Positions 44,196 through 58,465 of a DNA stretch of 64,000 nt are shown here, piece by piece (the first letter of the stretch is position 1; every line of letters starts with the position of its first letter). The notes below the pieces were generated by a model. That model had not been told where the DNA came from, ran no database searches, and saw nothing but the letters and a program-made list of their open reading frames with translations. The position numbers and the translations under genes are program-made. This DNA comes from an uncultured delta proteobacterium (lineage in GTDB: Bacteria; Myxococcota_A; Polyangia; Haliangiales; Haliangiaceae), in assembly GCA_963772655.1 (NCBI GenBank), contig CAVYYE010000003.1, positions 2,545,341 to 2,609,340 of the forward strand. The letters are read 5' to 3'.

Positions 44196-45446
44196 TCAGT
44201 CGTCGGCGGCGTGGAATCGCCGCAACTTCTCCCACAGATGCTTGCGGGAGATCCCGAGCAACTGCGCGGCGCGCGTCTTGTTGCCACCGGTGGTCTCGAG
44301 CGCGCGTCGCACGTACTCGCGTTCGAACGCGAACACGGCCTCCGAAAGCGGCCGGATCTCGGCATGCTCGCCGGGTGGCGGGTCGCCGCAACACACGCTC
44401 CCGATCTCCGGCGGGAGGTGCTCGATCTCGATGTCGCCGCCGCGAGAGAGAACGAGCGCCCGCTGGATCGCGTGCTCGAGCTCGCGGACGTTACCCGGAA
44501 ACGGATAGGTCAACAGCGCGGCCCACGCGCGCGGAGAGATCGTCGCTCGCGTGTCTCCCGTCGCGTACTTGTCGAGGAAGTGCGCGACCAGCAGCGGGAG
44601 ATCGCCGGTGCGGCGGCGCAGGGGTGGAAGGTCGAGATCGAGCACCTTGATCCGGTAGTAGAGGTCGCCGCGAAATCGCCCGTCCGCGACCAGCGCGGAC
44701 AGATCGTGGTTGGTCGCGGAGATCAGACGAACGTCGACGGTGGTCTCGGTGTTGGTGCCGAGTGGATGAAACCGACCGTCCTCGAGCACGCGGAGCAGCT
44801 TGGCTTGCGCGGCGAGCGACAGGCTGTCGATCTCGTCGAGGAGAAGCGTGCCACCTTCGGCGGCCCTGAACCGGCCGTCGCGGCGATGCAGCGCACCGGT
44901 GAACGCGCCGCGCTCGTGTCCGAACAGCTCGGCCTCGATCAACGTCTCGGGAAACGCCGCGCAGTTGACGGTGACGAGAGGTCCATCGCGACGTTCGCTG
45001 CGCGCGTGGATCATCCGTGCGAGCACATCCTTGCCGGTACCGCTCTCGCCGGAGAGCAACACCGGGGCATCGCTCGAGGCGACTGCATCGACGCGCGCGA
45101 GCATGTCGTGAACGGCAGGCGAGTGGCCGACGAGAGGTGAATCGGTGACGTTGCCGAGCGCGTCGTCGAGCTGCTCGCGAATCGCGCCACGCTCCTCGAG
45201 ATCGCCGACCACCGCGACGAGCTCGTCGATCGAGCGCGGCCGAGGCAGGTAGACCGGCTCGGCGTCGTGACGCGCGTGGCCGGCATCGGGGGCACCCGCG
45301 ACCACGAAATCGAAGGTCTGCTCGGCCAGGGCGTCCGGGGCACCGGCCGCGTCGACCGCGACCACGTCGTGGCCCCGGGCCTGCAACAGCTGGCACGTGA
45401 CCCCACGGGCGGCGCTGTCGTCCTCGATGACGATGATCCTCGGCAC
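44196..45446 (-). CDS. Sigma-54-dependent transcriptional activator with an atypical N-terminal receiver-like domain
   Basis: GESGTGKD, GAFTGA and ESELFG-like [13 protein letters not shown], plus a C-terminal Fis-type [16 protein letters not shown]. The start is GTG 45446 ([10 protein letters not shown]), because the upstream extension has poor codon bias. It is paralogous to the gene at 55696..56952. Confidence 0.85.
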   Translation of the reverse strand: MPRIIVIEDDSAARGVTCQLLQARGHDVVAVDAAGAPDALAEQTFDFVVAGAPDAGHARHDAEPVYLPRPRSIDELVAVVGDLEERGAIREQLDDALGNVTDSPLVGHSPAVHDMLARVDAVASSDAPVLLSGESGTGKDVLARMIHARSERRDGPLVTVNCAAFPETLIEAELFGHERGAFTGALHRRDGRFRAAEGGTLLLDEIDSLSLAAQAKLLRVLEDGRFHPLGTNTETTVDVRLISATNHDLSALVADGRFRGDLYYRIKVLDLDLPPLRRRTGDLPLLVAHFLDKYATGDTRATISPRAWAALLTYPFPGNVRELEHAIQRALVLSRGGDIEIEHLPPEIGSVCCGDPPPGEHAEIRPLSEAVFAFEREYVRRALETTGGNKTRAAQLLGISRKHLWEKLRRFHAADD

Positions 45447-45708
45447 GGCTACCTGAAAGGCTAACCCAAATCCTCGCAACGGCATTCCGGCATCGGAACG
45501 GAACCACGCTTACATCGAAACGGTGTGGCGTACGTGTCCGCGAGGTAACGGTGCGGTGTGCGATTCGTGGTCGATAGGTAACGTTCGCGAACTGACCGGG
45601 AGTCACCGAGATCGCGTGCATTCACCTACCTGACCGCCTCGCGCACTGCAGGTTTCCGCGATCGACGTCGAAGCATCGCAGGCATGGTGCTTGATGTGAT
45701 CACGTGTG

Positions 45709-46809
45709 ATGAGCAACGCCGACCTTCTGATCAGCAATCTCGCCAACCAGATCGATCACGCGTTGGCCCCGATGCGATTGAGTCTCGGACGCCTCGCGAG
45801 CTTCGAGCTATCGCGTCGACCGATGACGGCGGAGCGCCTGCACCGGATCGAGCTCCTGCAGGACGTGCGTGAAGGTGTCGACCTCGTCGAACGAATCGTC
45901 CGCGAGCTGCACGCGCTGTCGCGAACCGACAACGAGGATCGCAGTCGAGTCGAGCTTCCCCAGCTTCTCGAGACGGTGCTCGCGATCGCCGGCGAGGCCA
46001 CGCGTCACTGCGGATGGGTGTCCCGAAACTACGAGCGCGTTCCGGCGGTGTGCGTACGACCGACCTCGCTGCACCACGCGCTCGAGAACGTGGTGCTCAA
46101 TGCCGTCGAGGCGATCGAGGAGGATCCGCGACGCGGGCAACTCAGCGTCTCGACGCACACCGACGCTCGAGGCTACGCGGTGATCGAGATCTCCGACACC
46201 GGCCCCGGGATCGCGGAGAGCGACATCCCCCGCGTGTTCGATCCGTTCTTCACCACGCATCCGAGACGAGCTCTCGGACTCGGACTCGCGATGACGCGCG
46301 ACATGGTCCATGCGGAGGGAGGCGAGGTCGAGGTCGCCAGCGAGCTCGGGATCGGCACCACCGTCCGGATCTGCATCCCACCGTGTCCTCCCGCACTCGG
46401 CGACCGCGTGCCGACCGAGAACTTCGCTCCCTCCGAGCTCCCGCTCAGGATCCTGATCGTCGATGGCGATCGGCCGGAGGCCGCCGCGCTCGCCCTCGAG
46501 CTCGGCGATCACGACGTGGTGGTGACCGAGAACAGTCGCGAAGCGATCCACGTCCTCCGCGAGGATTCCGAGTTCGACGTCGTGGTCTGCGACGTCGAGC
46601 AACCCGAGAATCGCGAGGTCTACGAGGAGATCCGCGTGTCCGAACCGCACCTCCTCGATCGGATCGTGTTGCTGACCGAGGAAGCGCACTCGAGGAACGC
46701 GGCGGCGTTCCTGCCGGACGTCGAGGCGCCGGTGATCGAGAAACCGATCGTCGCGGATCAGCTCCACGCCGTGGTCGACGCGATCGCACACGAGCTCCAC
46801 GCGTCGTAG
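45709..46809 (+). CDS. Soluble hybrid histidine kinase (HisKA-like, HATPase, C-terminal receiver-like domain)
   Basis: IDHALAPMRLSLGRL is a H-box-like segment. HATPase motifs are EISDTGPGI and GLGLGLAMTRDMV. The receiver-like C-terminus reads LRILIVDGD. It is divergent from the sigma-54 activator and paralogous to the gene at 57272..58465. Confidence 0.8.
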   Translation: MSNADLLISNLANQIDHALAPMRLSLGRLASFELSRRPMTAERLHRIELLQDVREGVDLVERIVRELHALSRTDNEDRSRVELPQLLETVLAIAGEATRHCGWVSRNYERVPAVCVRPTSLHHALENVVLNAVEAIEEDPRRGQLSVSTHTDARGYAVIEISDTGPGIAESDIPRVFDPFFTTHPRRALGLGLAMTRDMVHAEGGEVEVASELGIGTTVRICIPPCPPALGDRVPTENFAPSELPLRILIVDGDRPEAAALALELGDHDVVVTENSREAIHVLREDSEFDVVVCDVEQPENREVYEEIRVSEPHLLDRIVLLTEEAHSRNAAAFLPDVEAPVIEKPIVADQLHAVVDAIAHELHAS

Positions 46810-56952: not shown

Positions 56953-57271
56953 CGGGGTCTCCCTTGAAGCGTTAGCTGGCGGAACCGATCGGCGACTACC
57001 ACACACACGTGGATCGACGCGTACGACATCCCTCATGTTGATAGTGGCGAACCGGTGACGGTCGGTCGCGGGATTCGTTCGAAAAAGGTAACGCGTGCGC
57101 GACCGTGTTGGCGTCTCGTGAGCTGCGTCTCAGGATGTTGTCGCGACGGAACGTCAACGATCGATGGCATCGCATCGTGTACACGTCGAACACGCGTGCA
57201 GTTCTGTCAACGTGCCAACGTGAGTGGATGTCGTTCACCCTTCGGCACGCCCCTTGATTCGTTCGCCAGTG

Positions 57272-58465
57272 ATGACGGACGAGAACGCTTGCCTTCCGAT
57301 TTTTCTAGTAACGAGCCTCGCACACCAGATCAATAATGCACTGGCGCCGATGCGACTCAGTCTCGGTCGCTTGGTGAGCTTCGAGCTATCGCGACGCCCG
57401 ATCTCCGAGGAGCGCCTACACTGCGTCGAGTTACTGCAGGATGTACGCGAGGGCGTCGCGCGCATCGAACGCATCGTGCACCAGCTTCGAGCGTTCTCTC
57501 ACACCGAGGACACCACCCGCCGTGCCATCGAGCTTCCAGAGCTACTCGAGATCGCGCTCGCACTCGCGAGTCACGACATCCAGCACCGAGCACGTCTCGT
57601 GCGCGACTACAATCCAGTGCCGCTGGTGCGTGCGCGCCCTGCCCGGTTGCGCCAGGCGATCCTCAGCGTCCTGCTGAACGCGGCCAACGCGATCCCGGAC
57701 GGCCAGACGCATCTCAACGAACTGCGTGTCAGCACCCGCACCGACTCGCGTGGGTTTGCCGTGGTCGAGATCTCGGATACCGGCACGGGGATCGCCGCCG
57801 AGGATCTACCCCGCATCTTCGATCCGTTCTTCACGACGCGCTCCACCGGACTCGGGCTCGGCCTCGCGATGACCCGCGACGTGGTGACGGCCGAGGACGG
57901 GCAGATCGAGGTCGAGAGCGAGATCGATGTCGGAACCAAGGTTACGATGACGTTTCCCCCGACCGATGACGCCCCCGAGTTCGTCGAGTTGACCGATAGC
58001 GAACCGGCGAAGACAAAGGTGACCGGTGGGCTGCGGATCCTGATCGTCGATGACGATCGTCCGGTGGCCGCTGCGATCGGGCTCGAGCTCGCTCGGCATG
58101 ATGTCGTGGTCGCGGAGAGTGGACGCGAGGCGCTCGGGATCCTCCACGAAGACTCCGGGTTCGACCTGATCCTGTGCGACCTGATGATGCCCGATGTCTC
58201 CGGCATCGATGTCTACGAGGCGATCCGCGCGACCAACCCGCGGCTACTCTCCCGCGTCGTGATCATGACCGGCGGCGCGTTCACGACGCGCGCCGACCAG
58301 TTCCTCTCCGCTGTCGAGACCCCCGTCCTCGAGAAGCCATTCGAGCCCGGACAGCTCCACGCGATCGTCGAGACGTTCCAACGGCGCCGCCAGACGTTCG
58401 CGTCGACTTCGATCGATCCCGCAAGTCCGGAGGCGATCTCGAGGGAGGACTCGACTCCTATCTGA
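57272..58465 (+). CDS. Soluble hybrid histidine kinase (paralog of 45709..46809)
   Basis: INNALAPMRLSLGRLVSFELSRRP matches the paralog. HATPase motifs EISDTGTGI and GLGLGLAMTRDVV. Receiver LRILIVDDD..DLMMPDVSG. It is divergent from the sigma-54 activator. Confidence 0.8.
   Translation: MTDENACLPIFLVTSLAHQINNALAPMRLSLGRLVSFELSRRPISEERLHCVELLQDVREGVARIERIVHQLRAFSHTEDTTRRAIELPELLEIALALASHDIQHRARLVRDYNPVPLVRARPARLRQAILSVLLNAANAIPDGQTHLNELRVSTRTDSRGFAVVEISDTGTGIAAEDLPRIFDPFFTTRSTGLGLGLAMTRDVVTAEDGQIEVESEIDVGTKVTMTFPPTDDAPEFVELTDSEPAKTKVTGGLRILIVDDDRPVAAAIGLELARHDVVVAESGREALGILHEDSGFDLILCDLMMPDVSGIDVYEAIRATNPRLLSRVVIMTGGAFTTRADQFLSAVETPVLEKPFEPGQLHAIVETFQRRRQTFASTSIDPASPEAISREDSTPI

Follow-up and report, generated by a model that had tools for sequence, protein, structure and literature searches.

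How can sigma-54 activators whose receiver domain has lost its phosphorylation site remain, across related genomes, the constant neighbours of a set of histidine kinases? The question is raised by a stretch of 64,000 nucleotides (nt) from an uncultured delta proteobacterium placed in the Haliangiaceae by the GTDB lineage (assembly GCA_963772655.1, contig CAVYYE010000003.1, positions 2,545,341 to 2,609,340 of the forward strand), here called the window. The locus concerned, which opens at position 44196, is a lineage-specific sigma-54/histidine-kinase regulatory island of a Kofleriaceae-like soil myxobacterium. Two of its products, the activators A1 and A2, carry a shortened receiver in which the phospho-accepting aspartate (Asp) is replaced, and sigma-54-like motifs stand directly against the start codons of kinase genes. 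We somewhat favour a composite reading in which the Asp-less activators would switch on the kinase genes, as leaderless sigma-54 transcripts, instead of being phosphorylated by the kinases. The descriptive part of this account (genes, residue losses, duplication, motifs and their geometry) is much firmer than the mechanistic part.

A preliminary description of this DNA, made from the letters and open reading frames (ORFs), had outlined seven genes between 44196 and 58465: two paralogous modules, each a sigma-54 activator facing a soluble hybrid kinase, and a set of further kinases between them. All seven genes and their domains were borne out by Pfam at the positions given below, and a membrane helix is predicted in none of the seven proteins. 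A1 and A2 are the activators of modules 1 and 2, K1 and K2 the histidine kinase-receiver (HK-REC) kinases that face them, RK is a receiver-kinase and RPK a receiver-PAS-kinase; a poly-HAMP hybrid kinase completes the set. The G+C content of the window is 62-72%, coding frames were assigned from third-position GC, and the Pfam scan covered 22 ORFs between 30230 and 63971. The paralogy of the modules is confirmed by the proteins, A1 and A2 being 67% identical over 420 amino acids (aa) and K1 and K2 52% identical (E 2e-119), and the DNA of module 1 matches that of module 2 at 70-78% identity with a constant offset of about 11.5 kilobases (kb).

A1 (44196..45446, minus strand) and A2 (55696..56952, minus strand) have the same composition, Sigma54_activat, AAA_lid_14 and HTH_8 without a Response_reg match. 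The sigma-54 AAA+ domain (PF00158) is found at E 8e-67 in A1 and 3e-66 in A2, with GESGTGK, GAFTGA and LDEI present in both, and the Fis-type helix-turn-helix (PF02954, 50-53 bits in the two proteins) is near-invariant throughout their clade. A2 has a 100% identical counterpart in the database (P0001) and A1 is represented there by P0002, the two lying on one contig. The receivers had been called degenerate, and this is what was found: the phospho-acceptor Asp is replaced (FDFVVAG or FDVVVAG) and about 30 residues are deleted. When the N-terminus was isolated and compared with the Pfam Response_reg profile (PF00072), it matched profile positions 1-48 only, with 19.8 bits against a cut-off of 30.2.

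The loss is not peculiar to the window. A search with A2 returned about 50 protein clusters at 50-68% identity, none of which has a PF00072 match; the more distant hits, under about 50%, are the usual NtrC-family regulators with a REC domain. Those clusters that carry a source label, few in number, come from metagenome-assembled genomes of Kofleriaceae or Polyangiales, the rest from metagenome assemblies. Aligned against 11 canonical relatives, the receivers of 45 clade members keep beta1-alpha1-beta2-alpha2-beta3; the acceptor Asp is Gly, Ala, Ser or Thr in all 45 (FDVVVAG, VVTG or VVAA), the Lys of the 'KP' motif is mostly Arg or Gln, and about 30 residues between beta3 and beta5 are swapped for a short variable linker. 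By our own placement on the alignment, the deleted part would be alpha3-beta4-alpha4.

An AlphaFold2 model built with 38 clade sequences (mean predicted local distance difference test score 79.9) has beta1-alpha1-beta2-alpha2-beta3, a loop and one further strand, four strands in total, followed by a long helix (77-103) that runs into the AAA+ domain. Its best solved relatives are ZraR, NtrC1, FleQ and NtrX; the alignments to NtrC1, FleQ and NtrX start at query residues 62-71 (residue 70 for NtrC1) and chain residues 98-106, a point that we read as the beta5-alpha5 end of the receivers of these three proteins. An NtrC-type phosphorylation switch calls for an acceptor Asp and a complete (beta-alpha)5 receiver with its conserved Thr/Ser and Lys, and A1 and A2 have neither. 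Because the acceptor Asp and about 30 receiver residues are gone clade-wide, the activators of this clade, as judged from their sequences, cannot be switched by Asp phosphorylation. The clade is a distinct and uncharacterised group; a literature search, incomplete in its coverage, found no description of it and no direct one of Asp-less receivers on sigma-54 activators.

These residue losses bear first on the role proposed for the activators in the preliminary description, that of end points of an unconventional phosphorelay feeding sigma-54 promoters. In its fuller form this explanation holds that four or five kinases relay to both activators, which act on sigma-54 promoters elsewhere. It draws strength from the tight conservation of activator and kinases as neighbours, from the receivers on the kinases, which are intact except for that of K1, and from the canonical relatives of the activator, which form classical kinase-response regulator pairs. 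These relatives mostly have a plain kinase gene immediately 5', a layout unlike that of the clade. His-Asp transfer to A1 or A2 is nonetheless impossible with the acceptor Asp and alpha3-beta4-alpha4 missing clade-wide and the Lys mostly replaced, so that this part of the proposal falls; moreover, neither an Hpt domain nor a stand-alone output regulator was found by the Pfam scan inside 44196-58465, and sigma-54-type motifs precede the kinases themselves. A relay ending at the two activators is, on this evidence, unlikely.

A small molecule is another possible means of controlling an Asp-less activator. In FleQ the receiver-like domain lacks the Asp and the AAA+ domain binds cyclic di-GMP (c-di-GMP), and in a FleQ-like model a ligand such as c-di-GMP would control A1 and A2, with the kinases as no more than co-regulated cargo. 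FleQ is among the structural and sequence neighbours of the activators, and in five related loci (L001-L003, L083 and L084) the activator gene has a GGDEF gene as its immediate divergent neighbour. Against this, no GGDEF gene stands beside either activator of the window, nor in L004; neither the whole activators nor the isolated N-terminus matches the Pfam FleQ domain, and a MinD/FleN-like gene was not seen among the Pfam-scanned ORFs of the window. We regard control of this kind as distinctly improbable.

What, then, do the activators act on? A motif of the form GGCACG-N4-TTG, with the spacing of sigma-54 promoters, lies about 12-14 nt 5' of the starts of K1, K2, RK and two genes further downstream, the kinase RK2 and the activator EBP3. 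Before K1 it reads AGGCATGGTGCTTGAT (45680-45695, plus strand) and before K2 CGGCACGCCCCTTGAT (57243-57258, plus strand), in both cases with a GTG 10 nt and an ATG 13 nt after the motif. That of RK, AGGCACGCCGCTTGAA (55696-55681, minus strand), comes directly after the A2 stop codon and is followed by the ATG at 12 nt. RK2 has the near-consensus TGGCACGTTGCTGGCA (one mismatch; 60191-60206, plus strand) with its GTG 12 nt further on (60219), and EBP3 has TGGCCCGGCTCTCGCA (61501-61516, plus strand) with its ATG at 13 nt (61530). The RK motif also alters the operon as first outlined, in which A2 headed four genes with overlaps at every junction. The gene order stands, and so do the overlaps between RK and the poly-HAMP kinase (7 nt, GTGCTGA) and between the latter and RPK (ATGA); A2 and RK, in turn, are separated by a gap of 27 nt that holds the sigma-54-type -24/-12 motif, so that A2 does not simply head the operon and RK has a promoter-like motif of its own.

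The motifs are more frequent than chance would have them, and they are conserved. For the strict form GGCAYG-N4-TTGA the window has three occurrences where 0.16 would be expected, a number that none of 100 shuffles attains. The same motif with the same spacing stands after the stop codon of the activator and before the start of RK in six related loci (L001, L004, L006, L008, L083 and L084), and 5' of the operon of the K-type kinase in five of them (L001, L004, L006, L083 and L084), the first gene there being a small zinc-ribbon ORF or a single receiver. Across 16 aligned instances GG is present in 16, GGCACG in 15-16 and TTG in 14-16, with four free positions between the blocks and unconserved flanks. 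Since only the GGCACG and TTG blocks and the N4 spacing are conserved, the pattern is a sigma-54 signature. Furthermore, in the loci of the clade an ATG or GTG that opens an ORF of at least 150 codons follows the motif at 12-13 nt in 14 cases, where 0.7 would be expected (P~6e-14).

The same offset was observed outside the clade. In unrelated Myxococcota loci (L009-L082, about 1.2 megabases) the start of a long ORF lies 12-13 nt after a sigma-54 consensus 23 times against 6.9 expected (P~1e-6). The peak in these loci holds for motifs with the consensus TTGC, and from such counts the placing of a promoter against the start codon seems to be general in Myxococcota. If +1 is set 12 nt beyond the -12 position, the predicted distance from it to the start codons is 0-4 nt, and from this we infer that the mRNAs would be leaderless. 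No direct description of sigma-54-driven leaderless mRNAs was found in a literature search of incomplete coverage. The activator genes are built otherwise: they have a TAnnnT box together with a Shine-Dalgarno sequence, GGAG. Sigma-54 drive of the activator genes themselves was considered and is probably not the case, as A2 has no GG, A1 has the wrong spacing and all have the TAnnnT box and GGAG; in L004 and L084 GG-N10-TTG-like strings occur 13 nt ahead of the activator start codon.

Candidate activator sites were sought upstream of the motifs through k-mer and multi-locus comparison, MAFFT having mis-aligned the two divergent intergenic regions. In front of K1 two GGTAAC-containing 16-mers, 33 base pairs (bp) apart (45534..45582), are centred at -138 and -105 from the motif; in front of K2 two GGTRAC-containing 16-mers, likewise 33 bp apart (57044..57092), have their centres at -191 and -158 relative to the motif, which puts them about 100-135 bp away from the start of A2. 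The latter block is conserved 5' of the activator gene in relatives, where an NtrC-like palindrome GTCACC-N4-GGTGAC (GTCACCATTCGGTGAC) lies about 105-110 bp 5' of the activator start, perfect in L006 and L007 and with one mismatch in L004, L005 and L083, with a CGTTACC site about 32 bp from it. At two or fewer mismatches the background of this palindrome is 0.16 per kb. Before the K-operon promoter motif, GGTGAC-containing 16-mers are centred at -81/-82 in L001, L083 and L084, and L004 has paired sites at -104/-72; at K1, K2 and in L004 the members of a pair are 32-33 bp apart.

Put together, these features suggest the following scheme. The GGCACG-N4-TTG motifs would be sigma-54 promoters whose transcripts start 0-4 nt ahead of the start codon, and the Asp-less activators would bind the GTCACC-N4-GGTGAC and GGTAAC sites and switch the kinase promoters on. 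Activators would in this way set kinase abundance, giving a feedback or priming loop. In the kinases, phosphorylation of the N-terminal receiver may gate the attached kinase, after the example of NmpU and NmpS discussed below, with the poly-HAMP/GAF and PAS regions as putative cytoplasmic sensing domains. The activators would be controlled by something other than Asp phosphorylation, likeliest by contact with a partner such as the always-adjacent RK, or alternatively by their own expression level. As sigma-54-type promoter motifs precede the kinase genes, the flow of information is probably the reverse of that first described, with the activators feeding the kinases.

Several observations weigh against this scheme. 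L005 and L007 have degenerate forms of the RK motif, and in the 16 aligned instances the -12 position is A (TTGA) in 11 and the consensus C (TTGC) in 2; RK2 and EBP3 have GC. The predicted +1 carries an error of about 2 nt, and GUG is a poor leaderless start codon in Escherichia coli (PMC3616915). No GGTRAC palindrome lies within 260 bp of any of the RK promoter motifs; therefore a link from A2 to RK needs looping over about 1.4 kb or another activator, and EBP3 and EBP4, also encoded in the island, could serve the kinase promoters instead. Finally, control of the Asp-less activator by a partner is suggested by conserved adjacency only.

The unusual -12 base opens a further possibility, namely that GGCACG-N4-TTGA is the binding site of another factor or a translation signal and not a promoter. 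A fixed distance of 12-14 nt ahead of the start codon might serve a translational operator just as well. Conservation does not, however, extend beyond the two blocks and their spacing, which are the defining features of sigma-54 promoters, the RK2 motif is a one-mismatch consensus in the same arrangement, TTGC motifs in unrelated Myxococcota loci peak at the same offset, and four sigma-54 activators are encoded in the island; a non-promoter function of the motif is highly improbable.

The adjacency of RK and A2 can also be taken further than in the scheme of activators feeding kinases. The truncated receiver could be switched in trans by docking of the phosphorylated receiver, or of the kinase core, of the adjacent REC-HK protein, the pair forming a 'split' response regulator; the activator would then fire the start-codon-abutting sigma-54 promoters and yield leaderless kinase mRNAs in a self-amplifying manner. 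A kinase of the REC-HK type does twice adjoin an activator without a phosphorylatable receiver, namely in RK/A2 and RK2/EBP3, and under such docking the second pair would be another instance of a receiver moved onto a kinase. We hold this version as a tentative and rather unlikely one. A literal domain swap, in which the RK receiver derives from that of the activator, was examined and is unsupported, all receivers of the island being alike (about 36% identity) when compared with canonical activator receivers.

The kinases that face the activators differ in the state of their phosphorylation sites. K2 (57272..58465, plus strand) is a sensor-less HK-REC hybrid with the canonical His, Asp, Thr and Lys. 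K1 (45709..46809, plus strand) has the same sensor-less layout and its ATP-binding boxes, with Asn in place of the H-box His and DGD for the acid pocket of its receiver. Both kinases begin 12-17 residues ahead of the H-box and have no FHA, PAS or MASE1 sensor region. The H-boxes had been considered near-identical, which misses the key difference: K1 reads LANQIDHALAP against LAHQ(I/V)NNAL in K2 and three orthologues (L001, L004 and L006), so that the phospho-accepting His is lacking in K1, where a His occurs four residues further on. Moreover, the K1 receiver has DGD in place of DDD and misses the MMPxVSG loop, and its Pfam receiver score is 27 bits, below the cut-off of 30.2, against 64.8 for K2. 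K1 is 47-49% identical to the orthologues, K2 59-64%. K1 is the fast-evolving, degenerating copy; it may be a pseudokinase, a decoy or a gene under loss.

In a neighbour-joining tree A1 and A2 are sisters in 197 of 200 bootstraps, with a protein of L084 (P0003) as the nearest outgroup, and this sisterhood argues that the activator and HK-REC module was duplicated within this lineage. Module 1 is a recent duplicate with a degenerating kinase and not a second input of equal rank. Is module 1, then, a decaying copy without a role of its own, in an ordinary stretch rich in two-component genes that forms no integrated circuit? K1 has lost His and Asp13 and diverges faster than K2, an unrelated insertion of 2.1 kb parts it from RPK, and myxobacteria encode well over 100 kinases (PMC11841059), all of which would suit such redundancy. 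Yet A1 is as conserved as A2 (61-66% and 57-65% identity, respectively, to the orthologues), the K1 ORF is intact, has a normal codon-position GC (0.84 at position 3) and retains its N, G1, F and G2 boxes, promoter motif and upstream sites, and the core gene order is conserved in nine related loci. A redundant module in an unorganised stretch is very unlikely.

The core order recurs in relatives of the locus, and this gene-neighbourhood comparison supports the view that it is a coherent unit of several components and not a random accumulation of two-component genes. Activator, RK, poly-HAMP kinase (where present) and RPK follow one another in L001-L003, L006, L007, L083 and L084, and the order is kept, over the length that the contig covers, in L004, L005 and L008. 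A K-type HK-REC kinase with an N-terminal CBS region is found near the activator in relatives, divergent from it and usually with a GGDEF gene between; in L006 it lies instead downstream of RPK. The window has neither a GGDEF gene nor a CBS region, and the kinase core sits directly on its promoter motif. The K operon of relatives opens with an ORF of about 62 aa that has two pairs of Cys and ends in a conserved acidic stretch (DPYDELGGGD), found in L001 (5948-5757, minus strand) and L084 (about 8610-8420, minus strand) and as a remnant in L083. This ORF gives weak zinc-ribbon Pfam matches, lies directly behind the sigma-54-like motif and is missing from the window. In L083 a gene call of 914 aa (538-3282, minus strand) unites HisKA/HATPase with a receiver and a sigma-54 AAA+ domain and represents either a true fusion of kinase, receiver and activator or a mis-joined call.

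RK (54529..55668, minus strand; REC-HisKA-HATPase) is always the adjacent gene of the activator in relatives. The poly-HAMP hybrid kinase (50684..54535, minus strand) has, by Pfam, five HAMP and six HAMP_2 matches, GAF, HisKA, HATPase and REC, and RPK (49149..50687, minus strand; REC-PAS-HisKA-HATPase) has all its phospho-site residues canonical. A longer ORF (50684-55549) covering the poly-HAMP gene was rejected as an artefact of an open overlapping frame, the true start being the GTG at 54535, as in orthologous gene calls. The HAMP array (52782-54185) is made of five tandem units of 276 nt (92 aa), the inner ones 81-83% identical. The protein measures 1283 aa in the window, 1296 in L001 and 1542 in L084, which suggests that gain and loss of HAMP repeats lies behind the length differences among orthologues, and it is missing altogether in L006, L007 and L083.

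An inserted segment next to module 1, noted from the start, is real. A direct repeat of 237 nt, with copies at 46709..46945 and 49040..49276 that are 95% identical, flanks an insert of 2094 bp (46946..49039, minus strand), which carries two lipoprotein-like genes unrelated to signalling. The repeat is made of the joined convergent 3' ends of K1 and RPK: the first copy holds the real K1 end and a dead copy of the RPK end, the second a dead copy of the K1 end and the real RPK end. It follows from this joining that K1 and RPK were once convergent neighbours 8 nt apart, and the repeat-insert-repeat layout is what integration of a small circle by a single crossover would leave. One insert gene (47961-48944) encodes a PD40 propeller protein. 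The other (46948-47779, minus strand) has a signal peptide, a Cys-rich DNDGDG motif and a proprotein-convertase P-domain; its coding sequence runs through two overlapping frames and changes codon phase near 47500, the result of either a frameshift in a pseudogene or a sequencing error.

The locus had been closed at 58465, but signalling genes continue from there to 63971 and include a sigma factor, a second REC-HK kinase and two more sigma-54 activators. The sigma factor, of the FliA/WhiG family (58592..59374, plus strand; 188.1 bits in NCBIfam against a cut-off of 189.6), is possibly co-transcribed with K2, and a lipoprotein gene (59582-60124) is also downstream of K2. RK2 (60219-61349, plus strand) is the second REC-HisKA-HATPase kinase and starts with GTG. 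EBP3 (61530-62561, plus strand) is a sigma-54 activator without an N-terminal regulatory domain, and EBP4 (62583..63971, minus strand) a canonical activator with REC, sigma-54 AAA+ and HTH domains; from its domains we infer that EBP4 would be the sole phosphorylatable output regulator of the island. An ORF of 614 aa on the opposite strand (58484-60328, minus strand) is not a gene, as it has the wrong codon-position GC and no family match, and plus-strand genes occupy the stretch.

To the left of module 1 lie genes for Ser/Thr protein kinases with TPR regions (32280-35090, minus strand; 40230-42404, plus strand) and for a PHP-domain protein (42485-44056). A cobalamin riboswitch (RF00174, 60.1 bits; 38439-38630, minus strand) is unrelated to the kinase/activator locus, inside which the Rfam scan gave nothing. 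Scans for sigma-70 promoters and terminators gave background-level numbers only.

The kinase and sigma-54 activator repertoires of myxobacteria are huge, and knowledge of them comes almost entirely from one species. A clade from a little-studied Kofleriaceae branch that has given up phosphorylation control and kept its kinase set offers a natural test case for sigma-54 activators without a phospho-switch, as K1 does for the role of duplicated pseudokinases. If leaderless sigma-54 mRNAs are indeed routine, the annotation of gene starts and promoters would change phylum-wide, and an activator-dependent sigma factor would be linked to translation that is independent of Shine-Dalgarno sequences.

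The suggestion that the circuit was previously undescribed holds in the comparison with known systems: no named system, developmental phosphorelays included, was matched, no NCBIfam model scored above its cut-off, the papers found describe analogues only, and the identity of the paralogous pairs is well within the significant range. Among characterised activators, the central and DNA-binding domains are closest overall to NtrC1 and DctD (PDB 1ny5, 4l4u), and the model retains the linker helix (77-103). The helix between receiver and AAA+ domain of NtrC1 holds an inactive dimer, a lock that is opened by Asp phosphorylation, whereas here the Asp and alpha3-beta4-alpha4 are gone. FleQ and FlrA (PDB 8p53, 5exx) are among the best PDB matches and share a receiver-like domain that is non-phosphorylatable; in these proteins this N-terminal domain is unphosphorylated and control passes through partners or ligands. 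They differ in that the N-terminus described here is a shortened canonical NtrC-type receiver, its first half matching PF00072 and no Pfam FleQ domain, that no FleN was seen among the scanned ORFs, and that the locus has no flagellar context. The activator belongs to neither the FleQ nor the NtrC1/DctD subclass.

With regard to the kinases, the NCBIfam models matched best by the HK-REC part of K2 and by the kinase core of RK are those of the EspA/EspC pair of Myxococcus xanthus, at 312 bits (K2 to EspC, cut-off 1200) and 278 bits (cut-off 1400). K1 and K2 lack the FHA, PAS and MASE1 sensor part, and the output of the Esp system is proteolysis of MrpC, not a sigma-54 activator. EspA and EspC are paralogous HK-REC hybrids, and one kinase of the pair phosphorylates the receivers of both; an active K2 beside a crippled K1 would have its precedent there. 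The poly-HAMP kinase resembles Aer2-like proteins in being soluble and in its tandem HAMP domains (here with a 92-aa repeat), Vibrio Aer2 being among its NCBIfam matches with six matched stretches; fungal group III hybrid kinases are likewise soluble tandem-HAMP proteins. In contrast to these, it has a GAF domain between HAMP array and kinase, lies inside a sigma-54/kinase operon and is dispensable in the three related loci that lack it. In CheA3/CheS3 of Rhodospirillum centenum and RedCDEF of M. xanthus, phosphate is reported to pass from kinase to kinase, or to be exchanged by a kinase with a kinase-like protein, and not to go straight to the output regulator (PMC3868531, PMC2755868). Proteins, sensors and outputs are different there, and a Che-type module is absent from this locus.

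Judged by analogy, the closest system in logic is NmpRSTU of M. xanthus, a multi-kinase pathway that has a soluble first kinase and ends at an NtrC-like sigma-54 activator (PMC11841059; PMC6211767). NmpS is an 'atypical hybrid' with an N-terminal receiver and a C-terminal HisKA-CA, in which phosphorylation of the receiver shuts off the attached kinase, and signals pass from NmpU to NmpS to NmpR; RK, RK2 and, with a PAS domain added, RPK share the domain order of NmpS as described (PMC11841059). The differences concern the output and the parts list: the NmpR receiver is phosphorylatable and those of A1 and A2 are not, the gene order differs, and neither a globin domain (as in NmpU) nor a double-receiver protein (as NmpT) is encoded among the Pfam-scanned ORFs. 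Multi-kinase/sigma-54 loci are common in the phylum, and the present locus is a conserved, uncharacterised variant of the known myxobacterial systems of this kind.

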